The notes beneath the pieces are model-generated. The model was not told the origin of the DNA. It ran no database searches and saw only the letters and a program-made list of their open reading frames with translations. From positions 7,705-71,704 of the forward strand of contig QZIZ01000075.1 of the NCBI GenBank assembly GCA_003599195.1: a stretch of DNA of 64,000 bases. Direction: 5' to 3'. This document shows, piece after piece, positions 3,603 through 29,874 of the stretch. Position 1 is the first letter of the stretch. Each line of letters starts with the position of its first letter. The translations under genes were made by a program, and so were the position numbers. Source of the DNA: Deltaproteobacteria bacterium (lineage in GTDB: Bacteria; Desulfobacterota; Desulfobaccia; Desulfobaccales; 0-14-0-80-60-11).

Positions 3603-5897
3603 ATGGATAGGTCTAATTTTCCCAGGATTCCCTTCACCGATCTGGATCTCCTTGAATCTGAAGAATTTCAACTGCGAATTTTTGAAAGCTTTGCCGATCC
3701 CCTGGCGGTTTACGATCGAAGTTACCAAATCCTGAAAGTTAATCAGCCGCTGTTGAAATTCTATCAACGGTCCGCCGGGCAGCTCCTGGGCCGGCATTGC
3801 TACCAGGTCTTTCATGGCCGCAGCGCGGTTTGCGAGAACTGCCACGTGGAGAAGGTCTTCGAGACCGGAAAACCCCAAAGGCGGGAAATGCTCATTACGT
3901 TGCCGGATGGCAGCCGGCGTTTCTTCGTGGTCCATGCCTATCCGGTGAAGGATGACGGGGGCGCCGTCATCCAGGCCCTGGAGCATGGCCGGGATGTCAC
4001 TTATCAGAAGACCGTGGAAAAGGAATTGCGCTCCGCCAAGCAATTTCGAGAAAACATCATCAATGCCATCACCGACACCCTGTTGGTCATCGATCCCCAT
4101 AATTTCCGGATTATGCAGGCCAACAACTCCTTTCTGAGCCGAGTCGGTCTTGATGCCGCTAGAGTCCTGGGCAGAACCTGCTACGAGATTTTACTGCGCC
4201 GGGAACATCCTTGCGCTGTGGACGGCCTGGATTGTCCGGTGGAAAAGTCCGCCAAAATTAAGCGAACGGCAATGGTCGATAAGGTTTATCCCGATGCCCG
4301 GGGAGTAGAGCGGGTCTTGCATATTGCCAGCTATCCCCTCTTGGATAGCCAGGGAGAGGTGGAGCTGGTGGTCCGCCTGGAGCGGGACGTCACTGAAAAG
4401 CGGACCATGGAGGAAGCCCTGGCCTTCAGGTCCCGGGAATTGCAGAAAACTCAGCACCAGTTGGAAACGCTGTTCGAAATTTCCCGGCAAATGAACGCCA
4501 AGGATTCATTAGTCGAAATTATTGAGTCTTTAAAAACCATAACTGAAGAAATCTTCCCCCATACCAGTTCACTATTTTTGATCATGGATGCCGGCCGCAC
4601 CCATTTTCTCCGATTTGGCGAAGGACTGGGCTATTTCATCGAAAAACCGGGCTTGGTGGCGGATTTTATCCGGTTTTTGGGAATACTTCAGGAATCCTGC
4701 ATTATTACCGGCAGGGATAGCCCGGCCCGGCTCGCTTTTCTAAAAACTATTTCCGGGATATTTCCCCAATGGCTTGGCATACCGATCATGGTGGAAAGAC
4801 AATGTATCGGGTTTTTTCTATTGAGTTCCCAAAACCTCATAGACTATTCCAACCGGGACTTGCAATTCATCCAGGCATTGCTGGATCAGACTTCAGGGCA
4901 TATCCGGTCTCTGGTTTTACATGAGTCCAAAATTAGACAGGTCCATAGCCGGACCGCCAAAGTCTGTCATGGAGAAATCATCGGGCAGAGCAAGAGGATG
5001 CAGGAGGTCTATGAACTCATCGACCTGGTGGCCGGTTCCGACGCCACGGTGCTCATTACCGGGGAGAACGGCACCGGCAAGGAGTTGGTGGCCCAGGCCA
5101 TCCACCGCCAGAGCCATCGCCGCAAGGGGCCGTTTGTGGTGGCTAACTGCTCGGCCTATTCCCCCACCTTGCTGGAAAGCGAACTCTTCGGCCATGAGAA
5201 AGGCGCTTTTACCGGCGCCATCCGCCAGAAAAAGGGACGCATCGAAAGAGCCCACGGGGGCACGCTTTTCCTGGACGAAATCGACGATATCTCCCCGGCG
5301 ACCCAGGTGCTGCTGCTGCGTTTCCTCCAGGACCATTACTTTGAACGGGTGGGGGGAGAAAGAGCCATTGAGGCCAACGTCAGGGTGTTGGCCGCAACCA
5401 ATCAAGATCTCCAGAAGGGAGTGGATACCGGGAAATTCCGGAACGATCTCTATTACCGGCTGAACGTAATCGCCATTCATCTCCCCGCCCTGCGGGAGCG
5501 AAAGGATGACATTCCCCTTCTTTGCCGCCATTTCCTGAGCAAATGCAGCGCCAAAGAGAAGAAGAACATCCAGAAATTCTCGGCCAACGCCATGCAAACC
5601 TTGATGGATTATGATTGGCCGGGCAATGTGCGCCAGTTGGAAAATGCGGTCAATCATGCGGTGATTGTCGCCCAGGACGACATCCTCGGCAAGCGGCATT
5701 TGCCCCGATTCCTCAAGGAAATCGAAGATGAACCTGCTTCCACTTCCTTGACGGAAAATGAGCGCCGTTTAATCTTGAGGGTGCTTCAGGAAACCAACTG
5801 GAACAAACATGACGCAGCCAGGCGCCTGGAAGTCACCCGCAGCACCCTTTATAGTAAAATCCGGCGTTACGGTCTGGAGAGGGCGGGTAGCGCCTGA
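3603..5897 (+). CDS. Sigma-54-dependent transcriptional activator (PAS-PAS-GAF-like sensor, AAA+ domain, Fis-type HTH)
   Basis: Walker A GENGTGKE, GAFTGA loop (EKGAFTGA), C-terminal HTH AARRLEVTRSTLYSKIRRYGL. PAS-like segments carry Cys-rich stretches (CENCH, CAVDGLDCP). The ATG at 3603 follows GGAGGA; the track start at 3567 is GTG. Confidence 0.9.
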   Translation: MDRSNFPRIPFTDLDLLESEEFQLRIFESFADPLAVYDRSYQILKVNQPLLKFYQRSAGQLLGRHCYQVFHGRSAVCENCHVEKVFETGKPQRREMLITLPDGSRRFFVVHAYPVKDDGGAVIQALEHGRDVTYQKTVEKELRSAKQFRENIINAITDTLLVIDPHNFRIMQANNSFLSRVGLDAARVLGRTCYEILLRREHPCAVDGLDCPVEKSAKIKRTAMVDKVYPDARGVERVLHIASYPLLDSQGEVELVVRLERDVTEKRTMEEALAFRSRELQKTQHQLETLFEISRQMNAKDSLVEIIESLKTITEEIFPHTSSLFLIMDAGRTHFLRFGEGLGYFIEKPGLVADFIRFLGILQESCIITGRDSPARLAFLKTISGIFPQWLGIPIMVERQCIGFFLLSSQNLIDYSNRDLQFIQALLDQTSGHIRSLVLHESKIRQVHSRTAKVCHGEIIGQSKRMQEVYELIDLVAGSDATVLITGENGTGKELVAQAIHRQSHRRKGPFVVANCSAYSPTLLESELFGHEKGAFTGAIRQKKGRIERAHGGTLFLDEIDDISPATQVLLLRFLQDHYFERVGGERAIEANVRVLAATNQDLQKGVDTGKFRNDLYYRLNVIAIHLPALRERKDDIPLLCRHFLSKCSAKEKKNIQKFSANAMQTLMDYDWPGNVRQLENAVNHAVIVAQDDILGKRHLPRFLKEIEDEPASTSLTENERRLILRVLQETNWNKHDAARRLEVTRSTLYSKIRRYGLERAGSA

Positions 5898-10974: not shown

Positions 10975-11042
10975 CACAATTGCACTATTGACAATCCCGA
11001 TTTAGAACCGAACTTTACCTTATCGGGAGTGAGATTATTCCT

Positions 11043-12206
11043 ATGGATGAAATCAGCAATTACGAACTCCATACCCAGGAGAACTGGCAACCTCTGGCAG
11101 ACCTCCTGAAGATTAGCGACCCCTTGTTCGAGAAGACCTTTTTCCTCTTTGGGTATGACTTTTCCTGCAATATTTATCTTATCCAGGGAGATTATCTGTC
11201 TATTATCGACCCGGGAAACGATTACACCGCGTTTATGCAGCTCCTGGACCAGGGGTTCAAGCTCACGGATATCAAGAAGATCGCCCTGACCCACGGCCAT
11301 CCGGACCATGTGATGGGCGCCCTGGAATTATTCAGAGGATATCCCGGTTATCGGATTTCTGAAGTGGAGATTATTATGCACGCCGCCGGCCCCCAGCAAT
11401 ATAAGGAACTGGTAGAGTCCCTGGGCTGCCGGCTGACTGAGGTTAAAGGCGGGGAAAAGATCGATTTAAGCGGTTTTGAACTGGAAGTGATCCACACTCC
11501 CGGACACACCCTGGACGGGATTTCCTTTTTCCATGAACCGTCCCGGACCCTGTTCTCCGGAGACACCGTCTTGCCCCATGCCATGGCGGAAGTCGATTCC
11601 TCGGGCGGGGGCAGAATGGATCACTATCTTTACTCCCTGCGGACCCTGCGCAAGAGAGAGGTTCACCATGTCCTGCCCGGCCACGGCGGCCTGGTGGCCC
11701 ACCTGGGCCGGCAGGTGGTGGACGGGACCTTTGAGGGCCTCATCAAGAAGTTGGTGGGAGTGGAAACCCCCTTCACGGAAGGGGCCGTGACTCTGGCCCA
11801 GAAAGGTTTACTGGATGAGGCCCTGTTCTATACCCAAAAGGAACTTGCGGTCAGTCCCCATAATCCCCGGGCTTTGGAAATGGAAGCCTTCCTGCTGCTC
11901 GACCTGGGACGCAATGATGAGGCTAACGGCATTTTCGACCGGATTTTGCAGCAAGATCATCGCCATTTTCACGCCCTGCTGGGCAAAGGCAGAGCCCTGC
12001 TGGGCATGGGAGGATTTCCGGCCAGCCTCAAATTTTTTGACCAGGCCCTGGAAATTAATCCCCAGGACCAGGAAGCCCTGATAAATAAAGGCCTGGCCCT
12101 TTATCTCAGCGGCCGGCAGGATGAAGCCTTGGATATAGAGATATTCCAAAAGGAGTTTGCCCGGAGGGTAAAACAGGAATTTGCCAAAAGGCCAATGGCT
12201 CGATGA
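11043..12206 (+). CDS. Metallo-beta-lactamase-fold hydrolase fused to C-terminal TPR repeats
   Basis: HxHxDH motif in LTHGHPDHVMGA, downstream HTPGHT and LPGHG. The C-terminal 150 aa has TPR-like A/L/G periodicity (ALLGKGRALLGMGGFPASLKFFDQALEINPQDQEALINKGLALY). Confidence 0.85.
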   Translation: MDEISNYELHTQENWQPLADLLKISDPLFEKTFFLFGYDFSCNIYLIQGDYLSIIDPGNDYTAFMQLLDQGFKLTDIKKIALTHGHPDHVMGALELFRGYPGYRISEVEIIMHAAGPQQYKELVESLGCRLTEVKGGEKIDLSGFELEVIHTPGHTLDGISFFHEPSRTLFSGDTVLPHAMAEVDSSGGGRMDHYLYSLRTLRKREVHHVLPGHGGLVAHLGRQVVDGTFEGLIKKLVGVETPFTEGAVTLAQKGLLDEALFYTQKELAVSPHNPRALEMEAFLLLDLGRNDEANGIFDRILQQDHRHFHALLGKGRALLGMGGFPASLKFFDQALEINPQDQEALINKGLALYLSGRQDEALDIEIFQKEFARRVKQEFAKRPMAR

Positions 12207-12291
12207 TAAACCGGCGTACCCATTCTGTTCTGGATATTCAGCAGCAATATCCAACTGAGGACTTCAACCCGGAAAGGGACGGAACGCAATC

Positions 12292-12540
12292 ATGGGAAAA
12301 ATACTTCGGCTGGACCGGGAAAAAGAAGCCATTGAAAAAGCTCTTCAGGTTCTGAGCTCCTCGCCGGTGGAACAGATCGTGGTCGCCGTCAAGTTTTCCG
12401 ACCGTTCGGAAGAAGTCTTTTTTTACGGAAATCCCAAGGAAATTATCCAATTATTAGCTTTGGCCCAGTTTCAGATAGGGTTTCGCTTCCCCTTGGGCGT
12501 GTGGGACAGGGTCGAAGAGAAAGACAGGGATCAAGATTGA
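12292..12540 (+). CDS. Hypothetical small protein (82 aa)
   Basis: ORF only. Its stop overlaps a possible TTG/GTG start of the next ORF. Confidence 0.35.
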   Translation: MGKILRLDREKEAIEKALQVLSSSPVEQIVVAVKFSDRSEEVFFYGNPKEIIQLLALAQFQIGFRFPLGVWDRVEEKDRDQD

Positions 12541-12788
12541 CCTGGTTTGCGGCCTTCCGATGCCTGGATTGTGAGCACTTCTGGCGGGAACCGTCCCCGG
12601 AGGATGCCTGGGAGATGGCCAGAGAGGTGGCCGCCGCGGCCGTTTGCCCGCTGTGCGGCGCTAAGATGAGAGACGGCCGGGTGGAACTGCTGAGTCACGC
12701 GGAATCGAATCTCGCAGTCATCAGCGCCACCACCCATAACTTTTCTCCAGCCGATAATTCTCTCCCAAGAAAACCAAAAGGGCGATAA
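12501..12788 (+). CDS. Small zinc-ribbon protein (start uncertain: GTG 12501 or TTG 12537)
   Basis: CLDCEHFW...CPLCGAKM (CxxC-N-CxxC). Confidence 0.4.
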   Translation: MGQGRRERQGSRLTWFAAFRCLDCEHFWREPSPEDAWEMAREVAAAAVCPLCGAKMRDGRVELLSHAESNLAVISATTHNFSPADNSLPRKPKGR

Positions 12789-13165
12789 CCCTACGGCTTA
12801 AGGGTTGGTTAAAGGGTCGATTACCGAACATAATAATGATAAAAAGAGTCGGAAATCAAACAAGAACATCCCTGCATACCATTTTTTATCTTTTAATTAT
12901 AGTTAGTTATACTATTTTATAATTGGCTTGTTCTTTGCATCAAACCTAAAGCGTAAGAGAAAAAGTCATCGGACGCTTTTTCCTCCTTACGTGCAGCTTT
13001 CACGTTTAAGGCCCCACGGACGATTCCCCGTGGGGTCTTTGCTTTGTATCGGCACGAATTTGAAGCCGCTTGCCCTTCAACACCCCCGATTTTTGAGCTT
13101 ATGCGTGATAACTCAAAAACAGCCTGAATGTTTTTCTCATAAGAAAGGCGCATACGGGAATAAAT

Positions 13166-13570
13166 TTGATCCATCAAGATAAATCTTCGCCCATCTTATT
13201 GTTAATTTCAGACCATAACACGCGCAATTGTTTATGGAATCTACTCTCGGAAAACGAACTTTCACCTCGGTTGATGGGCGATCAGAAAGAGTTGTTGCGG
13301 GAACTCAAAAAGAGCCGGTGCGCCACGGTTCTGATCGATTGTAGCGCGGTCAGCGATTATGGAGCGGGAATAATATCGAAGATTAAAGTAGTCTGCCGGC
13401 ATAGCCGCATTATCGTTTTCTGTGATAAAGCGCACCTTGTTGATAGTCACCATAGAGGGATCATCAAGGAAATTTTAGCAATCGGCGTTTATGCCTGTGT
13501 TATGGCCCCTTACAAAGGATGGGAAGTCATCAGTCTGGCCGGCTATTATTCCCATCCGGAGAGAAAGTAA
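13166..13570 (+). CDS. Receiver (REC)-like single-domain protein, divergent
   Basis: ILLLISD...TVLIDCS...IIVFCDK layout resembles the CheY-like beta-alpha pattern. Convergent with the hybrid kinase gene. Confidence 0.45.
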   Translation: MIHQDKSSPILLLISDHNTRNCLWNLLSENELSPRLMGDQKELLRELKKSRCATVLIDCSAVSDYGAGIISKIKVVCRHSRIIVFCDKAHLVDSHHRGIIKEILAIGVYACVMAPYKGWEVISLAGYYSHPERK

Positions 13571-17631: not shown

Positions 17632-18279
17632 ATGACCCCCGAGGAAAAAATCGGGCCGGTGCTGAAAATCCTGGATGAGCATTACCCGGACGCCCACGTC
17701 ACCCTGGATTTCACCAACCCCCTGGAGTTGCTGGTGGCCACCGTCTTGTCGGCCCAATGCACCGACGTCCGGGTCAACAAGGAAACCCCAGCCGTCTTCA
17801 AGAAATACCCCGATGCCGCGGCCTATGCCGCCGCGCCCCTGGCGGAGCTGGAGGCGGCCTTTCATCCCACCGGTTTTTTCCGGCAGAAGGCCAAGAGCGT
17901 TCAGGGGATTTGTAAAGCCCTGATGGAGCAGCATGGCGGCCAAGTGCCCGCGTCTTTGGAAGAGTTGGTCAAACTTCCCGGCATCGGCCGCAAGACCGCC
18001 AACGTCATTTTGGGGAACGCCTTCGGCATTCCCGGCATCGTGGTGGACACCCACATGGGCCGGGTCTCCCAGCGCATCGGCCTCACCACCAACCAAGACC
18101 CGGTGAAGATCGAATTCGACCTCATGCCCCTGGTGCCTCAAGAGCGTTGGATCAAATTCTCCCATCAAATGATCTGGCACGGCCGCGCCATCTGCACGGC
18201 CAAGAAACCGCAATGCCCCGTCTGCCCGATTCTGCCGTACTGCGACTACGGCCAACAGGCGGTCTCCGGGGGGCGTTGA
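17632..18279 (+). CDS. nth: Endonuclease III (DNA glycosylase/AP lyase)
   Basis: HhH-GPD motif LVKLPGIGRKTANVILGNAFG and C-terminal 4Fe-4S cluster CTAKKPQCPVCPILPYC. Confidence 0.92.
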   Translation: MTPEEKIGPVLKILDEHYPDAHVTLDFTNPLELLVATVLSAQCTDVRVNKETPAVFKKYPDAAAYAAAPLAELEAAFHPTGFFRQKAKSVQGICKALMEQHGGQVPASLEELVKLPGIGRKTANVILGNAFGIPGIVVDTHMGRVSQRIGLTTNQDPVKIEFDLMPLVPQERWIKFSHQMIWHGRAICTAKKPQCPVCPILPYCDYGQQAVSGGR

Positions 18280-18339: not shown

Positions 18340-18759
18340 ATGATGCTAAAAGATTTGCGGGTAAAGCTGGCGGGACTGCTGGTGGGGCTGCTTTTCATCT
18401 CGGCTTGTGTGCCCATGCTGCTCCTGAGCGCCGGGGGCATGGCCGCCATCGGCACCTATAAATGGGTCGAAGGCACCATGGAGAAGGATTATCCCCGGCC
18501 CATGCAGGAGGTGTGGAACGCCTGCCTGCTGGCCTGCAACGACTTGAAGCTCAAGGTCGCGGGCCAGCAATACGGCCCCTTGGAGTCGAAAATCGAGGCG
18601 GTGCAGCCGCCGGACACCACCGTGAAGATTCAGCTTATCGGCCGGCCCAACCAGATCACCACCGTCAAGGTGCGCTTCGGCATGATGGGCAACCAGGACA
18701 ACTCCGCCTATTTCAACCGCCGGGTCATGCACCACCTGGGGATGCAGCCGGACGCTTAA
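18340..18759 (+). CDS. Putative lipoprotein (DUF3568-like by recollection)
   Basis: Signal/lipobox-like LLFISAC. The remainder is of unknown function. Confidence 0.5.
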   Translation: MMLKDLRVKLAGLLVGLLFISACVPMLLLSAGGMAAIGTYKWVEGTMEKDYPRPMQEVWNACLLACNDLKLKVAGQQYGPLESKIEAVQPPDTTVKIQLIGRPNQITTVKVRFGMMGNQDNSAYFNRRVMHHLGMQPDA

Positions 18760-18826: not shown

Positions 18827-18862
18827 GCCAATTTTCTCTTTCTATGTTAATAAACTTTGTAA

Positions 18863-20398
18863 ATGAAAGACCGTTCTGTTTATTTTCGCCTGGCCGTTCC
18901 TATCCTGCTCTGGGCCATCCTCCTTTTGGTCCTGTATCTTTCAAGCCTTTACAGCTTTCTCCTCTTCCACAGCATCGCCGAAATTTTCAGCATCATCATT
19001 GCCGGCGGGGTCTTTGCCCTGGCCTGGAACTCCCGCCGGGTCATTCATAATAATTATCTGCTCTTCCTGGGCATCGGCCTGCTCTTCATCGCCTTTCTGG
19101 ACCTGATCCACGCTCTGGCCTATAAGGGTATGGGGGTTTTTCCCGGCTACGGCGCCAATCTGCCCACCCAACTCTGGATCGCGGCCCGCTATCTCCAGAG
19201 CCTCACCTTTCTGGCCGCGCCTTTGCTGCTCCATCGCCGCCTCCGGCCCGGACTGGTCTTTTTGGGTTATTTTCTGGCCACCGTCCTTTTACTGCTCGCT
19301 ATTTTCCAGTGGCGGATATTCCCCGACTGCTTTGTGGAAGGCCAGGGACTGACCGCTTTCAAAAAGAACAGCGAATACCTCATCTCCCTGATCCTCCTGG
19401 GCGCCATGGGGCTTTTGCTGCAAAAGAAGCGGGACTTCGACCCTTCGGTCCTGCGCCTCTTGGTAATCTCCATCCTGTTGACCATCGGGTCCGAACTGGC
19501 CTTCACTTTTTACATCAGCGTCTATGGGTTCTCCAACATGGTGGGGCACCTGTTTAAGATCATGGCCTTTTACTGCATCTATAAAGCCATCATCGAGACG
19601 GGCCTGGTGCAGCCCTTTGCCCTGTTGTTCCGGGATCTGAAGCTGCATAAGGAAGAGCTGGAAAAGGACCGGGACACCATCAAAGAGCTTAATGTGGAAC
19701 TCATTAAACGGGTGGAGCAGTTGGAGGCCACCAACCGGGAATTGGAGGCCTTCAGCTACTCAGCCTCCCACGACCTGCAGGCGCCTCTGCGGGCGATTAC
19801 CGGCTTTTCCCAGATATTGCAAGAGGAGTACGTGGATAAACTGGATGAAGAAGCCCGGAAGTTCCTGACCATCATCCAGGACAACAGCCAAAAGATGCGG
19901 CTCCTGATCCGCAGCCTCCTCGATCTTTCCCGCATGGAACGCCGGGAACTGAATATTTGCGAGGTTAATATGGAGGAGCTGGTCTTCTCCGTATTTGCGC
20001 AACAAAACGGCGCCGCGGCCAGAGTTCCCGAATTGACCATCAAACCCCTGCCCCCTGCCCGGGGCGACCTGGTGTTGCTGCGGCAGGTCTTGGACAACCT
20101 CCTGGCCAACGCCCGCAAATTCACCCAAACCCGGGAGGCTCCGGTTATTGAAGTGGGAGGCAGCAGCGATGAGGGTGAGAACGTCTATTACGTCCAAGAC
20201 AACGGCATCGGCTTTGATATGAAGTACGCCGAGAGAATCTTCGAAAGCTTTCAACGCCTTCACAGCGAAGAGCATTTCGCCGGCGCCGGCATCGGCCTGG
20301 CCCTGGTCAGCCGCATCATCCACCGCCATGGCGGCCGGGTCTGGGCGGAGGCAAAACCTGGAGAAGGAGCTGTCTTCTATTTCACCCTGCCCCGGTGA
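18863..20398 (+). CDS. Membrane sensor histidine kinase (multi-TM N-terminal sensor, coiled coil, HisKA, HATPase)
   Basis: About 7 hydrophobic segments, H-box FSYSASHDLQAPLR, N-box LLANARKF, G-boxes DNGIGF and GAGIGLA. Confidence 0.85.
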   Translation: MKDRSVYFRLAVPILLWAILLLVLYLSSLYSFLLFHSIAEIFSIIIAGGVFALAWNSRRVIHNNYLLFLGIGLLFIAFLDLIHALAYKGMGVFPGYGANLPTQLWIAARYLQSLTFLAAPLLLHRRLRPGLVFLGYFLATVLLLLAIFQWRIFPDCFVEGQGLTAFKKNSEYLISLILLGAMGLLLQKKRDFDPSVLRLLVISILLTIGSELAFTFYISVYGFSNMVGHLFKIMAFYCIYKAIIETGLVQPFALLFRDLKLHKEELEKDRDTIKELNVELIKRVEQLEATNRELEAFSYSASHDLQAPLRAITGFSQILQEEYVDKLDEEARKFLTIIQDNSQKMRLLIRSLLDLSRMERRELNICEVNMEELVFSVFAQQNGAAARVPELTIKPLPPARGDLVLLRQVLDNLLANARKFTQTREAPVIEVGGSSDEGENVYYVQDNGIGFDMKYAERIFESFQRLHSEEHFAGAGIGLALVSRIIHRHGGRVWAEAKPGEGAVFYFTLPR

Positions 20399-20399
20399 T

Positions 20400-20478
20400 G
20401 CGGTCTCTGCGTCCTCTGCGTCTCTGCGGTGAACAAAAGGGGGAATTCACCGCAGAGACGCAGAGAGCGCAGAGAATA
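20400..20478. repeat. RCARAG-arm palindromic element, near-identical to 63485-63566
   Basis: GGTCTCTGCGTCCTCTGCGTCTCTGCGGTGAA-caaaaggggg-AATTCACCGCAGAGACGCAGAGAGCGCAGAGAA. It starts 2 nt after the kinase stop codon. Confidence 0.9.
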
Positions 20479-20538
20479 AACTTTTGTTAGAGGTGCGATC
20501 TTCCGATAATGATCTTGAATATTTTAAAGGTGGATTTT

Positions 20539-21573
20539 ATGAAATTTAACCTGCGCCAGTCTAAATTGTGGACCATTTGGCCGGTTTTACTTATTGCCGC
20601 CCTGCTCTCCGTCGCCTCCCAGGCCTATGCCTTCCGGTTCGTGGTCATGGCCGACAGCCCGGACAACGAGACCAATAAAGGGGGGCTCAATCTAGCCTGC
20701 CTGGAATATCTTCGAGGGCAAATCCTGGAGCTGAATCCCCGGCCGGATATGGTGTTTTTTCTAGGCGACCTGGTGACCAAGGCCTACCAGGATTTGGCGG
20801 ACCCGCCCGATCCTGCCAAAAGGCATTATTATATTCCGGATTGGAAAGCAGCCATGGCGCCCCTGGCCCAGGCGGGCGTCAAGATTTACGTGAGCATCGG
20901 CAACCGGGACCTTTATCCGTCTAAGGGCTGGCCGCCTTCCAAAGAAATGGAACAGAAATTTCAGGAAGATTTCTCCGACCCGCCCTATTTCGATATGCCG
21001 GACAACGGCTCCCCCAACTATAAGAAGCTGGCCTATTCCGTGGCCCATGAAAACGCCTTTTTTGTGGTCCTGGACACCTTCGGCTTTAAACCTGACGGCG
21101 CCAACTATGACAACGGTCTGGATGCGGAGCAATTAGCCTGGTTTTCCGGCCAGGCTCGGGGGGCCACACAGAAATTCAAGTTCGCCTTCAGCCACGGCCC
21201 GGCCTTTTCCCCGGAAGGGTTTGCCGTGGGTGATTCAGTGAAAAAAACCATGTGGGGCATCATGGAAGGCGCCCAATTCGACGCCTATTTTTGCGGCCAT
21301 GAACATATCTATTCCCGCTGGGCGATCACCAGAGCGACTGCCCCCTGGATCACCCGCCGCATTACCCAGGTCTTGACCGGGGCCGGGGGCGCCCTGCCGG
21401 ACCAAATCTTTAAAGTAAAACAGGACCGCAGGAAGGTCCACGCCTTTTCTCTTTATAATTACGTGGTGGGGGATGTGAACGAAAACGACGCCCAATTCCA
21501 GGCCGTCGGCGTCGATTGGAATGCGGGGAATTATACCGCCAGGATCATAGATCGTTTTGCGTTGCAGAAATAG
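20539..21573 (+). CDS. Secreted calcineurin-like metallophosphoesterase
   Basis: Signal peptide (LLIAALLSVASQAYA); motifs VVMADSPDN, GDLV, GNRD, GHEH. Confidence 0.8.
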   Translation: MKFNLRQSKLWTIWPVLLIAALLSVASQAYAFRFVVMADSPDNETNKGGLNLACLEYLRGQILELNPRPDMVFFLGDLVTKAYQDLADPPDPAKRHYYIPDWKAAMAPLAQAGVKIYVSIGNRDLYPSKGWPPSKEMEQKFQEDFSDPPYFDMPDNGSPNYKKLAYSVAHENAFFVVLDTFGFKPDGANYDNGLDAEQLAWFSGQARGATQKFKFAFSHGPAFSPEGFAVGDSVKKTMWGIMEGAQFDAYFCGHEHIYSRWAITRATAPWITRRITQVLTGAGGALPDQIFKVKQDRRKVHAFSLYNYVVGDVNENDAQFQAVGVDWNAGNYTARIIDRFALQK

Positions 21574-21738
21574 GGGGAGGCGCTGGCGGTAGCCTGGGCT
21601 ACCTTTTGACCGAAAACGGAAATATAAAAGCACAATATATCATTAATATATCACTCCACTATTGGCCGCGTCTTAGATGAGAATATATAGCAGTAATCAT
21701 ACATATTGCTATGTCATAAAACATATTTCATTGGTTGC

Positions 21739-23406
21739 TCATTCAAAATCGCTAAGGTCAAAATCAAAATCAGAAAGATCATCTTGCATTCTCTTATCTA
21801 GTTCTTGTTCAATAATTCTTTTTTTAAGCTCTTCGCTCAATATTTTTGCCCGCTCATGAATAAATTTCTCATAATCATCATCCCAAATCCCAAATTTCTC
21901 AAAATCGCCGATAAGATGGGTCATCATAGTTTTTTCAATTTGTTCTTCATTAACCTTAATAAATCTTTTCATGTAGGTAGATGGAGATTTTGCACCAATT
22001 TCTCTTTTATTAAGAAAATCGTCGACGATAGTGATGTTTAAAATATGATTCGCATCCCAATCATCTATTCCATTTTTTATTAAATATGCTTTCGGAAAAA
22101 AATGGTGGTAATTTTTGCTGTTTGCCTGTTTTAACCAATAATTACTAATATTAACTATAGAGTTATCGTTAAACGACTTTGGTTGGTGGTGGGCATAAAC
22201 GCATAATATCGCTTTAATATAAGCTCTACCTGCATTGAACCCACCGTTACGAACGATGAAGTCGGGAGAAGTATTAATCCCCCAATCATATTTAGGTAGT
22301 TCTTCGTTTAGAATTAAATCAATTCTTTTTATATCTTGGGCAAGTTTACTCTCGAGACTAGAGGAGTATCTATCTGAAAGAGAACAACGCCAAAAATAGT
22401 CTTGTAAATATTTCCGTTTATTTCCAGTTGGCCTATCGTTATGGTGATAAAAAAAATAGGCGAAGGGGACAATTAGAGCATTATATGGCAATAGTTGAGA
22501 TACTGGAATCCTATAAAAATTTCTAAAATATTCTACGGCTCTCTCTATTGAGTCTACAACATCATTCCATACATTTATGAACTTATTTTTATTAAGTTTT
22601 AGAATTTGTTTCTTTGTGCACTCCTTCTCTAAAACAATAGAGACAGTTTGAAGGACTGTGGCATCGGAAATTGTTTCATAATTTATCGGGGTTAACTTTT
22701 CTATAAGTTTTCTATATTTTTCCGCTAAATCAAAGTCTTGCTCAGCATCAAATGTCTTGGCAACCATAATTTCAAATACAGTAAGTTGTTTGCCGCCTAC
22801 ATTTATACGTGTAAATATTTCTGTTGCCACATCGATTGGTGCTTCTTTTATAAGGATAATTGAATAATTATACGATTCAATTCTTGTTTTATAGTCCTCT
22901 AACTTTTGGAGAAACCTATGAGGATAACGGGATAACAAAATTATCCCACCATACAGGAGATCAGTAATTCTAATTAAAGACCGTTCATCAATTCCCTCTT
23001 TATCCAGTATTACAATTTCTTCATCTTCGTTTGCTTCGAGATTAATATACATTTCCGCATAGTCATCAATTTTCCCATAATCCCTTTCAATTTTTACCCC
23101 TTTCAGGCTGGCGAATAGACTTGTTAATCTTTGCTGTCCATCAAGAACATATTCAATATAATCGCCTTCATCCGGGATGGGTAATCTAAAATTCCCAATA
23201 TCTCTAATAGCTCTTAATCTTTCTTTGGTTTTCCAAAATATAAGGGTCCCGATTGGGTAACCTTTAATGATGCTATCCATCAAGTTAGCAGATTTCTTTA
23301 AGTCCCAAACAAATTCTCTTTGAAATTGTGGAATTTTAATTTGCCCCTTTTCGATATCATTTAGCAAGCCTTTGAAATTCCGCGGACTAGTTTCAGGGAG
23401 ATACAT
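21739..23406 (-). CDS. GmrSD-like DUF262/DUF1524 protein (candidate modification-dependent type IV restriction nuclease)
   Basis: N-terminal IPQFQREFVW...VLDGQQRLTSL (DUF262 DGQQR signature). C-terminal YHHFFPKAYL...NHILNITIVDDFLNKR (His-Me/DUF1524-like). Acidic tail DLSDFDFDLSDFE. The gene and its flanks are visibly much more AT-rich than the surrounding DNA. Confidence 0.85.
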   Translation of the reverse strand: MYLPETSPRNFKGLLNDIEKGQIKIPQFQREFVWDLKKSANLMDSIIKGYPIGTLIFWKTKERLRAIRDIGNFRLPIPDEGDYIEYVLDGQQRLTSLFASLKGVKIERDYGKIDDYAEMYINLEANEDEEIVILDKEGIDERSLIRITDLLYGGIILLSRYPHRFLQKLEDYKTRIESYNYSIILIKEAPIDVATEIFTRINVGGKQLTVFEIMVAKTFDAEQDFDLAEKYRKLIEKLTPINYETISDATVLQTVSIVLEKECTKKQILKLNKNKFINVWNDVVDSIERAVEYFRNFYRIPVSQLLPYNALIVPFAYFFYHHNDRPTGNKRKYLQDYFWRCSLSDRYSSSLESKLAQDIKRIDLILNEELPKYDWGINTSPDFIVRNGGFNAGRAYIKAILCVYAHHQPKSFNDNSIVNISNYWLKQANSKNYHHFFPKAYLIKNGIDDWDANHILNITIVDDFLNKREIGAKSPSTYMKRFIKVNEEQIEKTMMTHLIGDFEKFGIWDDDYEKFIHERAKILSEELKKRIIEQELDKRMQDDLSDFDFDLSDFE

Positions 23407-23738
23407 TGGGCACCCCTTACGGAAGATATACGCGTAACCTCATACACCGCATACCAAAAATGGTTTTTGGGGCATTTTTCTCGAGTTAAACTCCGAAAAA
23501 GTTCCTTTTTTCAATAACCGAATTGCCTTGGCATAATATCACAAATTTCCGGGGTATGGTGTTTTTTGAAAGTTGGCCATTCTTGATAACTTGCCACATT
23601 AGACAGTTATCAGTGGAGCGCGAAAAATTCCAGATATGATCCGATTATATGGAAAATTATTGACAGACGCCAGTTTGATGCGGATGCGTCCCTATTCTTG
23701 ATGGTGGGTAGTGCAAATATTACCAGGATGGAGTTTTT

Positions 23739-24812
<1,074 letters not shown>

Positions 24813-24818
24813 TTTCAT

Positions 24819-24975
24819 CTGGTTCCCAAGCTGCGCTTGGGAACCCACTTGGCTGCGAAGCTTTGCTTCGCCGGTTATGTATTGGGTAAATTGTCTATGG
24901 TGCTTGTAACTAGCCCGGCCAAGCAGAGCTTGGCCTCCAAGTGCGTTCCCAAGCGGAGCTTGGGAACGAGAAGAG
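24819..24975. mobile_element. MITE-like element, copy 1 (terminal inverted hairpins GGTTCCCAAGC...GCTTGGGAACC)
   Basis: Left end CTGGTTCCCAAGCTGCGCTTGGGAACCCACTTGGCTGCGAAGCTTTGCTTCGC. Right end CCAAGCAGAGCTTGGCCTCCAAGTGCGTTCCCAAGCGGAGCTTGGGAACGAG. Second copy at 36989-37132. Confidence 0.8.
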
Positions 24976-24993
24976 ACGGTGCCATGCTGACAG

Positions 24994-25347
24994 CTAAATC
25001 GCTTGCTTGGAAAGTTCCGCCACCTTAGCGAACCCCGATGGATCAAACAGCGCCAAATCCGCCAACGCCTTGCGGTCCAGGTTGATCTGGGCCTTTTTCA
25101 GGCCGCCGATGAATTTGCTGTAGGACATGCCCAGGGGACGCAGGGCTGCGTTGATGCGGACGATCCACAGGGCCCGGAACTCGCGTTTCCGCACCTTGCG
25201 GTCCCGGTAGGCGAACGTCAGGGCCTTTTCCACGGCTTCCCGGGCGGAGCGGTAGAGGCGGCGCCGGCCGCTGCGGTAACCGCTGGCCATGCTTAGAAAT
25301 TTTTTGCGTCGGGCCCGGGAGGCCACACTTTTTCTCACGCGTGACAT
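24994..25347 (-). CDS. rplT: 50S ribosomal protein L20
   Basis: [43 protein letters not shown] is canonical L20. Confidence 0.95.
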
Positions 25348-25361
25348 GGGGTACTCCTATT

Positions 25362-25559
25362 TTAAACGTAAGGTAAGAGGCGTTTCAGGTTCTTCTCATC
25401 GGTCCCGGTGAGATAATCCGGCAGCCTTAAATGCCGTTTCCGTTTTCGGGACTTGCTGGTCAAAATGTGGCGCTGATTGGGGTTTTTCCTTTTCAGCCGG
25501 CCGCTGGCAGTGGCGCGGAAGCGCTTGGCCGCACCCCGATGGGTCTTCATCTTCGGCAT
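25362..25559 (-). CDS. rpmI: 50S ribosomal protein L35
   Basis: [25 protein letters not shown] is canonical L35. Confidence 0.95.
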
Positions 25560-25580
25560 AACGTAAACCTCTTAAAAACA

Positions 25581-25709
25581 GTTTTTAGTTTTTGGTTTTT
25601 AGTAAAACAAATGCCTTCCTCGGCCAATTCAAGAAGCAACCGGCTTCCCTCGCCAGAGATGGTTTAACTTTTAATGATAACTTAAAACTAAAAACTAAAA
25701 ACCAAAAAC
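25581..25709. repeat. Inverted pair of heptamer arrays bracketing the infC-rpmI intergenic core
   Basis: GTTTTTA GTTTTTG GTTTTTA (25581-25601) versus TTAAAAC TAAAAAC TAAAAAC CAAAAAC (25682-25709), about 80 nt apart. Confidence 0.9.
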
Positions 25710-25711
25710 CA

Positions 25712-26221
25712 TCATTTGGGAGTGACGATCATACTCAGGTTCCGGCCTTCCAGTTTGGGGTGCTGCTCCACTGTGGCGATATCCCCCAAGGCCTCGGAAA
25801 TCTGGGCCAGAATACGGAAACCCCGGTCGGTATGGGCGATCTCCCGGCCCCGGAAGATCACGGAAATTTTGACCTTATCCCCTTCGGTCAAAAAGCGCCG
25901 GGCGTTTCGCATCTTAAAGGCCATATCGTGTTCCTCGATCTTGGGCCGCACCTTGATCTCTTTGACCTGGATGGTGGTTTGCCGCCGCCGGGCTTCCTGC
26001 TGTTTTTTGCTCTGTTGATACTTGTACTTGCCATAATCCATGATGCGGCACACCGGCGGATTGGCCTGGGGAGCCACTTCCACCAGATCCAGGTTGGCCT
26101 CCGCAGCCATGGCCAGGGCTTCCCTGACGGGCATAACTCCGACCTGCTGGCCGTCGGCCCCGATCAAGCGGATTTCGGGAACCTTGATCTGTTCGTTGAT
26201 TCTCACGCGCTGCTTCTGGAT
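25712..26221 (-). CDS. infC: Translation initiation factor IF-3, probable non-canonical AUC start
   Basis: RINEQIKVPEIRLIGADGQQVGVM... is canonical IF-3. AGGAGG lies 8 nt upstream of the in-frame ATC at 26221; the track GTG at 26206 is 23 nt from the SD. Confidence 0.88.
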   Translation of the reverse strand: MQKQRVRINEQIKVPEIRLIGADGQQVGVMPVREALAMAAEANLDLVEVAPQANPPVCRIMDYGKYKYQQSKKQQEARRRQTTIQVKEIKVRPKIEEHDMAFKMRNARRFLTEGDKVKISVIFRGREIAHTDRGFRILAQISEALGDIATVEQHPKLEGRNLSMIVTPK

Positions 26222-26239
26222 GGCCGTAACCTCCTGGAT

Positions 26240-28159
26240 TTATGGGCTTTTAACAGGAGATGGGATTTTCCCTTCCTCCTGCACTCGCTGTACAAAAGTA
26301 TCTACGGGAATATCCTTCCACTCCGTGCCGTCCCGCAACCGGGGCGAGAGCGTCCGGCTCTCGGCTTCCCGGTCGCCGATGATCACCATATAGGGAATTT
26401 TTTGGAGTTGCGCTTCCCGGATCTTATAGCGGAGCGTCTCCGGCCGGCCGTCCAGCTCCACCCTTAAGCCCGCGTCCTTCATGAGCCCCTCAACCTCCTG
26501 GGCGTAAGCGTGCACCCGGTCGGTGATGGGCAGCAAGATGGCCTGGACCGGGGCCAGCCACACCGGGAAGGCCCCCGCGTAGTGTTCCACCAGGACGCCC
26601 ATGAAGCGTTCGAGCGACCCCAAAACCACCCGGTGCAGCATCACCGGCCGGTGGCGCCCCCCGTCCGCGCCCACATAGGTGAGATCGAATCTCTCCGGCA
26701 GGGTGAAATCGCACTGGATGGTGGCGCACTGCCAGCGGCGCTGCAGCGCGTCCTTCAGCTTGACGTCGATCTTGGGCCCGTAAAACGCGCCCTCCCCTTC
26801 GCAGATGGAGTAAGGGATATTTTTGGCCTGCATGGCGTTATGGAGCGCGCCGGTGGCCAGTTCCCATTCCGCGTCGGTGCCGATGGACTTCTCCGGCCGG
26901 GTGGACAGCTCCACCTCGTATTCGAAGCCGAAGACGGTCATCACCTCGAAGACAAAGTCCAAAACCCCCAGGATTTCGCTCTCCACCTGCTCCGGCGTGC
27001 AGATAATGTGGGCGTCGTCCTGGGTGAACTGGCGCACCCGGGTTAAGCCGTGGAGCACCCCGGAACGCTCGTGGCGCATCACCGTGCCCAACTCGAAAAA
27101 CCGCAGGGGCAGCTCCCGGTAGGAGCGCACCCTGGATTTGTAAATCAGCATGTGGGCCAAGCAGTTCATGGGTTTGACCCCATACAGGGTCTCCTCCACC
27201 TGGCTGAAATACATGTGGTCCCGGTAGTTGTCCCAGTGGCCCGAGCGTTTCCATAAATCCGCCTTGAGCATCTGGGGGCCCATGACCATCTGGTAGCCCC
27301 GTTTTAAATGCTCCCGGCGTTCAAAATCCTCGATGAGGCTCCGGAGCATGGCGCCCTTGGGGAGGTAGATCACCAGGCCCGGCCCGGCTTCCTCCTCCAC
27401 CATAAACAGCCCCAACTCCCGGCCCAGCTTGCGGTGGTCCCGGCGTTTCGCTTCCTCCAGGAGTTCCAGGTGGCGGTTTAGTTCCTCATGGGTGGCGAAC
27501 GCGGTGCCGTATAGCCGCTGCAGCATGGGCCGCTTTTCATCCCCACGCCAGTACGCGCCGGAGACGCCGGTGAGCTTGAAAGCCTTCAGGTAGCCGGTGG
27601 AGGGGATATGCGGCCCCCGGCAGAGGTCCACAAAATCGCCCTGGCGATATAAGCTGACCGAATCGGCAGGGATCTCCTCCAGGAGTTCCACCTTATAGGC
27701 CTCCCCCATTTCTCGGAAAAGCCCCAGGGCTTCCTCTTTGGAGACTTCCCGGCGCTTAAAGGGAAGGTCCGCGCCCACCAGTTCGGCCATCCTGGCCTCG
27801 ATCCGGGCCAGGTCCTCCGGAGTAAAAGGCTCCGCCACATCGAAGTCGTAATAAAAACCCGCTTCAATGGCCGGGCCGATGGCCACTTTCACTCCCGGGA
27901 AGAGCGAACGGACCGCTTCCGCCATCACGTGGGCCGCGGAATGGCGCATGATCTCCAGACCCTGGGGGGACTCCAGCCATACGGGGGCCACGGTGCAGTC
28001 ATGGTCCAGGGTCCTCCCCAGGTCCAGCAACTCCCCATCCACGCTAGCGGCCACGGCCTTATGGTCTGTGGCCACTCCCAGGTCTTGCAGCGCCTGGGCC
28101 ACGGTGATCCCTTCGGGTTCCTCCAGGGTCCGGCCGTGGTCCAAGGTGATTTTGATCAT
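26240..28159 (-). CDS. thrS: Threonine--tRNA ligase
   Basis: Full-length ThrRS by eye (TGS N-terminus, [11 protein letters not shown] editing motif, class II core, anticodon-binding C-terminus). Confidence 0.95.
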
Positions 28160-28173
28160 GCTTCGCCTCTAAT

Positions 28174-28218
28174 AAAAAAAGGCACCTCGGGCGTCCTCAA
28201 GAACTCTCCCCAGATGCC
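28174..28218 (-). promoter_or_regulatory. Terminator-like hairpin plus U7 tract inside the thrS leader (candidate attenuator)
   Basis: Minus strand: GGCAUCUGGG...CCCGAGGUGCC stem (one G-U pair and one bulge) followed by UUUUUUU, ending 14 nt before the thrS AUG. Confidence 0.4.
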
Positions 28219-28390
28219 GTTTCATTCTTACATAAATAGATTCACGGATGCTGCCGTGCTGCTCCTCATTCCCCCAGGCAAGCTTCACCCACTGAGTAAT
28301 AATTCAGCTCATTATTTCGCATAAATACCCGGCCAAGTCAAGCATTTTTACTTTTTTAAAGTGCTGTAGAAGATGAAAAAGAGAAAAATA

Positions 28391-28513
28391 ATTAACCACA
28401 AAGACACAAAGACCACGGAGGTTGACAGAGGAAAAGATTTTTGGATTGGCGCTAGCGCCAATCCAAAATACTATCTCTGTGCATCTCTGTGCCCTCTGTG
28501 TCTCCGTGGTAAA
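28391..28513. repeat. RCARAG-arm palindromic element (ACAGAG/ACAAAG variant) with central GC hairpin
   Basis: Arms TTAACCACAAAGACACAAAGACCACGGAGG... and ...CTCTGTGCCCTCTGTGTCTCCGTGGTAAAT. Core TTTTGGATTGGCGC-ta-GCGCCAATCCAAAA (28437-28466). Confidence 0.85.
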
Positions 28514-28593
28514 TCTTTTTCCTTTATCGCTTATTGCCTTAGCTCCGGAAAACAGAAAAAGATTTTTTATTTCAGTGACTCCGGAGAAAAGAA

Positions 28594-28738
28594 CCCCCTC
28601 CCCCTTCGAGGGGGGAGGGTTGGGGTGGGGGTGGCGTCTTTTTTCTTAGGAAACAACCCATTGCTGCCCAAGAAGCCCCCCTCACCCTACACCCATTCCC
28701 CCGAGGGGAGAGGGGATTAATACTGGAATATCCATATG
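28594..28738. repeat. Two CCCTCTCCC-type hairpin-element copies
   Basis: CCCCCTCCCCC-ttcga-GGGGGGAGGGTTGGGGTGGGGGTGG (28594-28635) and CCCCCCTCACCCTACACCCATTCCCCCGAGGGGAGAGGGGATTAATACTGGAATATCCATATG (28676-28738). Confidence 0.85.
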
Positions 28739-28871
28739 ATAAAAACTTACTGGTAATAAACAGACCCCTTTGGGAGCAGTTCGTTGGGCCGAATCTTTTT
28801 CAATAGTCTCCAGAGGAATGAGTTAAACCGGAGTTAAGGCAGTAATCGGTTTCCTTTTAGTTCCCCTGGAC

Positions 28872-28900
28872 TTGACAGGATGAAACCGCTACAGTAAATG
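28872..28900 (+). promoter_or_regulatory. Sigma-70-type promoter candidate for the transglycosylase gene
   Basis: TTGACA, a 17-nt spacer, then TAAATG, 39 nt upstream of the ATG at 28939. Confidence 0.3.
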
Positions 28901-28938
28901 GAAACCAAATTTTCACCAAAATTTATCGAGATAAGCCG

Positions 28939-29874
28939 ATGTTGGTAATTTTTCTGATATTCTTTGCGGGGTGCTGGTTCTGGCCCGGACTTTTAGGCGC
29001 AGGGCCGGCCGCGCCTCTGGTTTCGCCTCCGCCGCCGGCGGAGATCATACTCCCCTATTTCCGGGCGCCGGATAAAGCTATCCTTTGCGGCGAACCCGTG
29101 CCCCTGGAGGACCCCGCGGTTAAAGAGGACCTGGACCGGGAATTCACCATCACTGTTTGGAACCGCATCCAGACCACCATGTGGATCAAACGGGCCCACC
29201 GCTACTTCCCCGAGATCGAGCGGAAAATCCGGGACCATCGGCTGCCGGCGGATTTGAAATACGTGGTTCTGGTGGAAAGCGACCTCCGGCCCAAGGCCCG
29301 CTCCTCCGCAGGCGCCCAAGGACCCTGGCAGTTCATGGCCCCCACGGCCCAGCGCTTCCAACTGCGGATCAACGACGCGGTGGACGACCGGATGGAATTT
29401 ACCGCCAGTACGGACGCGGCCCTGCGCTATCTCAAAAATCTGTACCGCCTCTTCCACAACTGGCCCCTGGCCCTGGCCGGGTATAACTGCGGGGAGGGCC
29501 GGGTCCAGAAGGAGATGGCCGCCCAGGGGGTGAAAAACTATTATTACCTGGCACTGCCGGAGGAGACCGAGCGATATGTCTACCGCATTATTGCCGCCAA
29601 GATCGTGTGTGAGTCCCCGGAGCGCTACGGTTTCTTAATCCCGCCGGACCAGCTCTATCCGCCTCAGGACTGCGACGAAGTGAATTTCACCATCACCCGG
29701 GAGGTCCCGGTCAAAACCTTGGCCGAAGCCTGCGGCAGCTATTATAAAGCCATCAAGCGCCTCAACCCCTGGATCAAAGGCGCCAACCTGACTCCCGGGA
29801 CTTATCATTTGAAGATCCCCAAGGGCGCGGCGCCCAGGTTTAAGGAGGCCTACAGCCGGGGACAAATCGGTTGA
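28939..29874 (+). CDS. Lytic transglycosylase (SLT-domain) protein
   Basis: VLVESDLRPKARSSAGAQGPWQFMAPTA matches the SLT ES...S-AGA-G-MQ motif. N-terminal signal-like segment. Confidence 0.8.
   Translation: MLVIFLIFFAGCWFWPGLLGAGPAAPLVSPPPPAEIILPYFRAPDKAILCGEPVPLEDPAVKEDLDREFTITVWNRIQTTMWIKRAHRYFPEIERKIRDHRLPADLKYVVLVESDLRPKARSSAGAQGPWQFMAPTAQRFQLRINDAVDDRMEFTASTDAALRYLKNLYRLFHNWPLALAGYNCGEGRVQKEMAAQGVKNYYYLALPEETERYVYRIIAAKIVCESPERYGFLIPPDQLYPPQDCDEVNFTITREVPVKTLAEACGSYYKAIKRLNPWIKGANLTPGTYHLKIPKGAAPRFKEAYSRGQIG

Follow-up and report, generated by a model that had tools for sequence, protein, structure and literature searches.

The stretch of DNA examined here, a 64,000-nucleotide (nt) segment of the Desulfobacterota metagenome contig Ga0104756_1000323 (JGI sample 3300007352) that we refer to as the window, contains at positions 21574-23738 an AT-rich island with a single gene encoding a 555-amino-acid (aa) protein. 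Upstream of this gene and on its strand lie thrS (26240-28159), infC, rpmI, rplT and pheS (23739-24758), each with its expected Pfam and NCBIfam matches, and on the downstream side follow, in convergent orientation, genes for a calcineurin-like phosphoesterase and a MASE3 histidine kinase. A first-pass annotation, made from the sequence alone, had described the island as a restriction or defence gene of the GmrSD, BrxU and SspE type sitting where pheT, the gene for the beta subunit of phenylalanyl-tRNA synthetase (PheRS), should follow pheS. The elements of the locus on which the analysis turns are the following.

20509-21573, plus strand: calcineurin-like phosphoesterase gene, convergent with the island gene and the native right-hand flank of the slot (Pfam Metallophos; orthologues 84-92% identical in the same place in the related loci L174, L175 and L176).
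21580-23711, no strand: strain-specific AT-rich cargo segment between the phosphoesterase and pheS stop codons (homology breaks against L174, L175 and L176; guanine-plus-cytosine (GC) content 0.35, against 0.57 in the rest of the window).
21739-23406, minus strand: BrxU-like GmrSD-family gene, 555 aa, with a presumed type IV restriction endonuclease as its product (open reading frame; Pfam, PADLOC, BrxU profile and Foldseek).
23407-23555, minus strand: upstream leader with a probable promoter of its own, travelling with the gene (blocks shared with the homologue loci L083, L084 and L085; promoter predicted).
23739-24758, minus strand: pheS, last gene of thrS-infC-rpmI-rplT-pheS (TIGR00468, 359 bits against a cutoff of 237; Pfam tRNA-synt_2d).

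The island differs sharply in composition from its surroundings on both sides, as the first-pass annotation had stated. Its GC content is 0.349, against a mean of 0.568 (standard deviation 0.033) for the remaining 2165-nt segments of the 64 kilobases (kb), corresponding to z = -6.7, and the lowest value among those other segments is 0.442; locally, GC falls to 0.31-0.38 from 0.55-0.65 at about 21.6-23.7 kb. GC content at third codon positions (GC3) is 0.28 in the 555-aa gene and 0.81-0.86 in pheS, thrS and the genes for a DUF3568 protein (18340-18759) and EndoIII (17632-18279). The gene is the single long open reading frame (ORF) of the island (21739..23406, minus strand), and it is intact, its length being in line with that of its homologues (550-560 aa) and every motif column being kept. 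In the leader a TGnTATTAT-like extended -10 element can be read by eye near 23530-23545; scans for consensus promoters and terminators gave matches no more frequent than in shuffled sequence, and no Rfam family was found in 20000-29000. At the opposite end of the strain-specific segment, 15 nt past the phosphoesterase stop codon, the plus strand carries a 6-base-pair GC-rich hairpin, GGTAGC-CTGG-GCTACC, followed by TTTT (21588-21607), which is absent from L174, L175 and L176 and which the automatic terminator scan overlooked because it has only four T.

The limits of the insert were defined through comparison with its nearest relatives, three loci (L174, L175 and L176) found by a metagenome scan with the adjacent phosphoesterase protein. 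PheS and ThrS of L175 and L176 are each 95-96% identical to those of the window, and in all three loci DNA identity to the window is 88-92% over the flanks. L175 and L176 share the order orf186, EndoIII, DUF3568, phosphoesterase, slot, pheS (reverse), rplT and thrS, and L174, which ends just past the phosphoesterase gene without reaching pheS, has the same flank; none of the three loci contains pheT, a DUF262 gene or the MASE3 kinase gene. Nucleotide homology to these relatives stops at 21576-21579, 3-6 nt past the phosphoesterase stop codon, and restarts at 23712, 27 nt past the pheS stop, and the strain-specific cargo therefore comprises 21580-23711. The synteny comparison, which had been proposed at the outset as a way of defining the insertion boundaries, thus yields nearly the segment first delimited. 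At the same position L175 (9063-9969, 907 nt) and L176 (9051-9737, 687 nt) carry two overlapping small genes on the pheS strand, L175 having about 220 extra nt beside pheS. The first gene is an ORF of 97/107 aa whose match to RelE/StbE is weak and falls below cutoff (E = 2e-4), and the second encodes a 113-aa XRE-type helix-turn-helix (HTH) protein (HTH_3, E = 1e-13); given their toxin-then-antitoxin layout, the pair may tentatively be classed as a toxin-antitoxin module. In more distant members of the clade the slot is nearly empty.

The wider distribution of the gene shows that the stretch is a horizontally acquired single-gene insert, in agreement with the earlier suggestion of horizontal insertion. 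Its product is about 70% identical in amino acid sequence to proteins of Paenibacillus, Bacteroidales, Cyclobacteriaceae, Prolixibacteraceae and Elizabethkingia, and the gene has a GC content of 0.31-0.33 in every host examined, including contigs whose flanks lie at 0.55-0.59. At the DNA level, window positions 21726-23506 are 90% identical to L083 and L084, contigs from other samples, the match beginning 100 nt before the start codon and extending 13 nt beyond the stop. The flanks of these copies, which encode RadC at one end and a Cys-rich protein at the other, are unrelated to those of the window. Conservation of the leader extends, in blocks that also occur in L083, L084 and L085, to about 150 nt upstream; on the 3' side the flanks of the copies show no such conservation. 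Low-GC homologues inside higher-GC flanks were also seen in L083 and L086. Seven homologue contexts had no neighbour in common: three of them are defence or mobile regions (including CBASS with an integrase and SRA, and AbiJ with HigB and transposases), and one copy stands as a lone gene among housekeeping genes. PADLOC detected a DzbA-like gene and an HTH gene around the Elizabethkingia homologues that are not conserved between contexts. Homologues of at most 59% identity occur on Sulfitobacter and Pseudosulfitobacter plasmids, and of at most 45% on viral contigs. A phage or plasmid vector was considered and set aside, no plasmid or viral homologue being close enough to name one, as was the idea that the 3' flank folds into an attC-like integron site or some other structure (the fold z-score there is -0.74, and this flank is not conserved from copy to copy).

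The relationship of this insert to pheT was explored with a PheS scan of one genome per species, which returned 80 Desulfobacterota loci. In 75 of them the sequence after pheS resembles PheT, in most cases as an ORF of about 800 aa starting directly behind pheS; one more contig ends just after pheS. In the window itself the run from thrS to pheS is intact and pheT does not come next, as first described: tblastn with five Desulfobacterota PheT proteins gave a best E-value of 0.1 in the whole 64 kb, with no pheT or remnant of it. The three loci closest to the window among the 80 (L003, L004 and L007; PheS 79-81% identical) likewise lack pheT after pheS and lack the island, and in a tree of PheS built from p-distances they form a clade with the window in 100/100 bootstraps. 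The DUF3568 and EndoIII genes come next after pheS in L004 and L007, at a distance of 115-190 nt. Since clade relatives have neither pheT nor the island, the unlinking of the two genes is a clade trait older than the insertion: pheS and pheT were unlinked before the clade diversified, and the insert is a later exchange of cargo in a variable slot. The canonical bacterial PheRS alpha subunit works with a beta subunit, and PheS here is such a canonical subunit; pheT must therefore lie elsewhere in the genome.

In two loci other genes come after pheS. In L003 (6400-8050) pheS is followed by a same-strand gene for a HEAT-repeat protein of about 490-550 aa rather than by DUF3568 and EndoIII as in L004 and L007, so that the downstream junction of pheS is a synteny breakpoint across the clade. 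L018 (CAWEAR010000049, about 40% GC; 11002-13200) belongs to a low-GC lineage of Desulfobacterota unrelated to this clade, and here too pheT does not come after pheS; its place is taken by a gene for a small coiled-coil protein and by further small ORFs, one of them methyltransferase-like. As this lineage is unrelated, pheS and pheT have become unlinked more than once in the phylum.

The protein encoded by the island, which contains VLDGQQRLTS and ends in DDLSDFDFDLSDFE, can be divided into four regions.

22753-23373, minus strand: N-terminal DUF262 / ParB-like nucleoside triphosphatase (NTPase) domain, residues 12-218 (Pfam match; motif columns in a 76-sequence alignment; alignment to the RLFDS and DGQQR regions of BrxU).
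22147-22752, minus strand: alpha-helical linker, approximately residues 219-420 (AlphaFold2 helices; aligns to BrxU up to residue 362).
21817-22146, minus strand: predicted C-terminal His-Me finger nuclease domain, a diverged DUF1524, approximately residues 421-530 (H434-H435-F-F-P438, N457 and N466; BrxU profile; AlphaFold2 model).
21742-21801, minus strand: acidic C-terminal tail of low model confidence, approximately residues 536-555, '...DDLSDFDFDLSDFE' (sequence; predicted local distance difference test (pLDDT); homologue tails).

Pfam GmrSD_N (PF03235/DUF262) matches the N-terminal part with 108.2 bits against a gathering score of 33.2 (E = 8e-31), aligning residues 12-218 to positions 2-198 of the 199 in the profile, and the DUF262 motifs are present as Q29-R30, L88-D-G-Q-Q-R93 (with Leu for Ile/Val) and F198-T-R-I-N202, including the DGQQR at 89-93 on which the first assignment to DUF262 had been based. 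A HMMER search for the family returned 8609 cluster representatives at E <= 1e-3, 465 of them at E <= 1e-30, and alignment A1 comprises 76 full-length family members that are 28-92% identical. In A1 the residues Q29 and R30, L42, D44 and S45, D89-G-Q-Q-R93, and F198, R200 and N202 are invariant or at least 90% conserved; residues 41-45, NLMDS, align to the RLFDS of BrxU. NCBIfam assigned the protein to no family, and PHROGs gave matches to families of unknown function only, chiefly over the DUF262 region and part of the linker.

Among the C-terminal columns of A1, H434 and N457 are invariant, H435, P438 and N466 are at least 90% conserved, and F437 is invariant or at least 90% conserved. An AlphaFold2 model built with A1 (pLDDT 91.7; predicted template modelling score 0.84) is nearly all helix over residues 210-406, mostly with pLDDT above 90, and has in its C-terminal region two strands, 431-435 (with H435 as the last residue) and 458-462, and then the helix 463-470, in which N466 lies; in the model this strand-strand-helix arrangement is the layout of a His-Me finger. 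Pfam searches of the isolated C-terminal and linker pieces gave no meaningful match. PF07510 (GmrSD_C/DUF1524) matches 22 of the 76 aligned family members at E <= 0.01, and the 70%-identical homologue P0036, at 25.9 bits, exceeds the gathering score of 23. The C-terminal domain thus appears to be a diverged DUF1524, recognizable at the level of profile and predicted structure only. The two Pfam scans initially suggested therefore gave a divided answer, with PF03235 matching and PF07510 finding no match to the island protein, and the proposed DUF1524-like C-terminus holds at the profile and structure level and fails at the level of the Pfam model.

The acidic tail had been called unusual, a description that comparison with its homologues does not bear out. 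Nearly all of 120 close homologues have 7-13 Asp/Glu among their last 30 residues, in variable sequence, and two with truncated or variant ends have 4-5. In the model the tail is of low confidence, with a block pLDDT of 65 for residues 541-550 and 42 for 551-555, and residues 549-555 lie below 50.

Among characterized proteins the closest resemblance is to BrxU. PADLOC, a scan that had been recommended together with DefenseFinder, returned PDC-M55C as the best model (209 bits, residues 13-534 to positions 19-537 of the 554 in the profile), followed by HEC-05 (121 bits) and SspE (19 bits, N-terminal only); HEC-05 is BrxU (10.1101/2024.01.29.577857). BrxU (7p9k) is also the best sequence match in the PDB, at E = 1e-12 with the single sequence and E = 3e-35 with the A1 profile. 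The profile alignment places residues 10-322, comprising the N-terminal domain and linker, on BrxU 7-362 and residues 435-530 on BrxU 475-579, setting H435-FFPK on H475-IYPK within the pattern HxxPK...N...N. Foldseek against the PDB likewise ranks BrxU first (E = 1.6e-13, 623 aligned columns), followed by DndI and SspE, and the N-terminal domain matches ParB, Noc and sulfiredoxin (Srx). These results sustain the GmrSD/BrxU/SspE-type architecture originally assigned. In BrxU, D474 and H475 form part of the DHIYP nuclease motif, D474A, H475A, N485A and N519A were among the nuclease-domain mutants studied, and mutating D474/H475 abolished phage resistance (PMC8565348).

Together these findings make it probable that the island is recently acquired foreign DNA with an intact gene for a BrxU-like type IV restriction enzyme, lodged in a variable slot, and that the absence of pheT is a separate and older event. 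The data show the gene to be foreign and single, and they establish its domain architecture with the conserved catalytic motifs, the variability of the slot and the unlinking of pheS and pheT throughout the clade. We infer nuclease activity, dependence on DNA modification and an anti-phage role, as well as the route of integration. By homology to BrxU (PMC8565348) and other GmrSD-like enzymes, the N-terminal DUF262 domain would bind and hydrolyse nucleoside triphosphates (NTPs), and hydrolysis would drive a cycle between dimer and monomer that licenses the His-Me domain. The His-Me finger (H435, N457 and N466) would then cut invading DNA containing modified bases, while host DNA, being unmodified, would be spared. 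With host DNA free of the modification, no cognate methylase or partner would be needed and a single gene would be enough. That every NTPase and nuclease motif has been retained in proteins about 70% identical across phyla speaks for selection on the solitary gene.

A number of observations weigh against this interpretation. Pfam GmrSD_C finds no match to the island protein at E <= 0.01, nor to its isolated C-terminus at E <= 10; the C-terminal part of the BrxU profile match is weak by itself (independent E-value 0.12); and Foldseek template modelling (TM) scores are only about 0.4, with no rigid-body match. The nuclease motif is HHFFP where the canonical form is (D/E)HxxP, an invariant His replacing the acidic first residue, and catalysis is therefore only assumed. 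PADLOC's top model stands for one component, 'C', of a multi-gene candidate system, whose partners might be needed and are absent here. The insertion itself is unexplained: the island, with its one ORF, contains no integrase or transposase, no tRNA target lies near it (the sole tRNA of the window is at 1791-1877), and searches for flanking direct repeats or a target-site duplication gave only short matches at chance level. Nor was pheT located, being absent from the 64 kb and from every clade locus fetched, the rest of the genome not having been searched. The GmrSD-like protein EF_B0059 was toxic even in methylation-free Escherichia coli (PMC11322646), and no member of the subfamily to which the island protein belongs has been tested, as far as the searched literature shows. 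Regarding the structural points, the relative positions of domains in GmrSD-type proteins are flexible and poorly predicted, and TM-scores of about 0.4 fit this known flexibility. As for the active site, EF_B0059, which has another variant of the nuclease motif, is active (PMC11322646).

The altered motif is widespread. By a simple pattern count, 205 of 234 full-length relatives have HHxxP, and it recurs in 50 relatives from viral contigs, with identities as low as 22%. It is conceivable, if rather doubtful, that these proteins constitute a large HHxxP branch of BrxU-like enzymes, with His for the acidic residue and a conserved acidic tail, which differs from BrxU and GmrSD in the DNA it recognizes or in how it spares host DNA (for example through autoinhibition by the tail) and which spreads between phyla as a promoter-plus-gene unit without a recombinase.

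Of the explanations that compete with that of a solitary restriction enzyme, the one that survives best, while still improbable, regards the gene as an orphan piece of a multi-gene system (PDC-M55 component C) or of a bacteriophage exclusion (BREX), Hma or type I restriction-modification (RM) locus, which alone would be inactive or only regulatory. The full-length PDC-M55C match favours it, and GmrSD-like genes are often found inside BREX, Hma and type I RM loci, TgvAB for its part needing two proteins. However, no neighbour is conserved across the seven contexts of close homologues, one of which is alone among housekeeping genes; at this locus the gene adjoins pheS and a phosphoesterase gene, the latter also present in relatives without the island; BrxU/HEC-05 and HEC-06 function as single genes; and the preservation of NTPase and nuclease motifs across phyla implies selection on the gene by itself.

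It is very unlikely that the protein is not a restriction enzyme at all and acts instead as a ParB/DndB-like nucleotide-dependent DNA-binding regulator or as a selfish, homing-type His-Me nuclease. The ParB/sulfiredoxin-like fold of DUF262 lends this idea some substance, as does the fact that gene and leader spread together between phyla, as one unit and with no recombinase, and His-Me/HNH nucleases include homing endonucleases. Yet the protein comprises all three GmrSD domains in the same order as BrxU, its nuclease residues are conserved, its insertion sites differ (pheS, RadC, glyoxalase, defence islands) and hence offer no common homing site, and its homologues often lie in defence islands.

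Slightly less plausible again is an assembly artefact, in which an AT-rich segment from some other low-GC organism was misjoined into the contig. This would be in keeping with the metagenomic origin of the contig, the abrupt change in composition and the derivation of the closest DNA relatives from other samples. However, the segment is internal and both its flanks are collinear with relatives, so that an artefact would require two exact misjoins in one and the same intergenic slot; variability of the slot is seen independently in relatives, and other homologues (L083 and L086) are also low-GC genes in higher-GC flanks. Least credible of all is that the island inserted into or replaced the pheT of a thrS-infC-rpmI-rplT-pheS-pheT operon and thereby caused loss of the beta-subunit gene there, a view that the prevalence of PheT similarity after pheS in the phylum and the start of the island 27 nt past the pheS stop codon might suggest, but that is contradicted by the lack of a PheT-like remnant in the island or the 64 kb, by the different small cargo in the same slot of L175 and L176, and by the occurrence of pheS with neither pheT nor island in L003, L004, L007, L175 and L176 (L174 has the same flank without reaching pheS). 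This last arrangement is the one that the first-pass annotation had named beforehand as speaking against its claim of a broken or eroded operon, which we accordingly abandon.

Further features were noticed elsewhere in the window. A second segment of 1.7 kb (18846-20536) is absent from L174, L175 and L176, where DUF3568 leads directly to the phosphoesterase gene, and contains the MASE3-HisKA-HATPase sensor kinase gene (18863-20398) with host-like composition (GC3 0.74); the kinase insert and the AT-rich island thus represent two independent indels within 5 kb. An intergenic element of about 74 nt between the kinase and phosphoesterase genes (20404-20479) has a counterpart in L175, an intergenic site some 2.5 kb away (5472-5543) that it matches both in reverse (78% over 74 nt) and directly (97% over 29 nt); the kinase insertion may thus be bordered by a small palindromic repeat element. 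Towards the start of the window, an AT-rich patch at 900-1900 (GC 0.36-0.42 at 900-1500) lies beside the sole tRNA gene, tRNA-Leu(taa), and an XRE-like HTH ORF is found at 164-625; the patch may mark where a mobile element associated with the tRNA ends, or be what is left of one.

In general, the locus represents an ordinary defence gene in a variable slot, and nothing in it challenges current understanding. Through it, a Desulfobacterota lineage that is uncultured and represented solely by metagenome contigs gains a probable modification-dependent restriction enzyme, and it provides a natural example of cargo swapping in one intergenic slot, with a type IV nuclease in one strain and a putative toxin-antitoxin pair in its sister strains. 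It further draws attention to a very widespread, approximately 70%-conserved BrxU-like branch with an HHxxP active-site variant, absent so far from the experimental work that our literature search covered. The unlinking of pheS and pheT across the whole clade is a smaller point, which corrects the idea of an operon broken by the island.

The arrangement as a whole is comparable to the variable cargo slots and defence hotspots of other genomes, which likewise have conserved flanks (here pheS and the phosphoesterase gene) and strain-dependent content. It differs from known hotspots in that the slot was observed in only three allelic states and that neither a recombinase nor a repeat marks it. 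With regard to the protein, the candidate multi-gene system PDC-M55 offers the best-scoring model, and its component C is matched equally well by the homologues P0006 and P0116. The name suggests several genes, whereas only the C-type protein is present here; no partner genes were found at this locus or conserved around the homologues, and no publication describing PDC-M55 was found in the literature searched. The neighbours being pheS and the phosphoesterase gene, no BREX, Hma or type I RM locus surrounds the gene, and PADLOC reported nothing relevant among five genes on the phosphoesterase side.

The phosphorothioate-sensing proteins SspE and DndI share with the island protein the N-terminal DUF262 domain with DGQQR and appear among its profile and fold matches (6jiv, 9jfl). 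These matches are far weaker and at the sequence level confined to the N-terminus, SspE is longer at 771 aa, and no sspABCD or dndBCDE modification genes were found in the neighbourhood of the island. GmrSD proper (EcoCT/Eco94 GmrSD), HEC-06, TgvAB and EF_B0059 combine DUF262, a linker and a DUF1524-type His-Me domain, as the island protein is predicted to do, and GmrSD-like enzymes carry out modification-dependent restriction of phage DNA. None of the four is a close sequence relative of the island protein, and in contrast to TgvAB, which requires two proteins, the island gene is single, as are BrxU/HEC-05 and HEC-06, which work as single genes.

BrxU of Escherichia fergusonii pEFER (PDB 7p9k/7p9m) remains the nearest known counterpart, with the same order of DUF262 NTPase, helical linker and His-Me nuclease in 587 aa, compared with 555 aa here. 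The two proteins have in common QR, xLxDS (RLFDS in BrxU, NLMDS here), DGQQR, FxxxN and HxxPK...N...N. Their identity over the structure alignment is only about 16-17%, the nuclease motif is HHFFP in one and DHIYP in the other, and the island protein has an acidic disordered tail. BrxU moreover sits in a BREX locus, whereas the island gene stands alone in a chromosomal slot beside pheS. The Ser of the BrxU RLFDS motif controls the dimer switch, and GmrSD, SspE and HEC-06 are without a motif of this type (Payne et al.). An RLFDS-type motif is thus common to the island protein and BrxU and not found in GmrSD, SspE or HEC-06.

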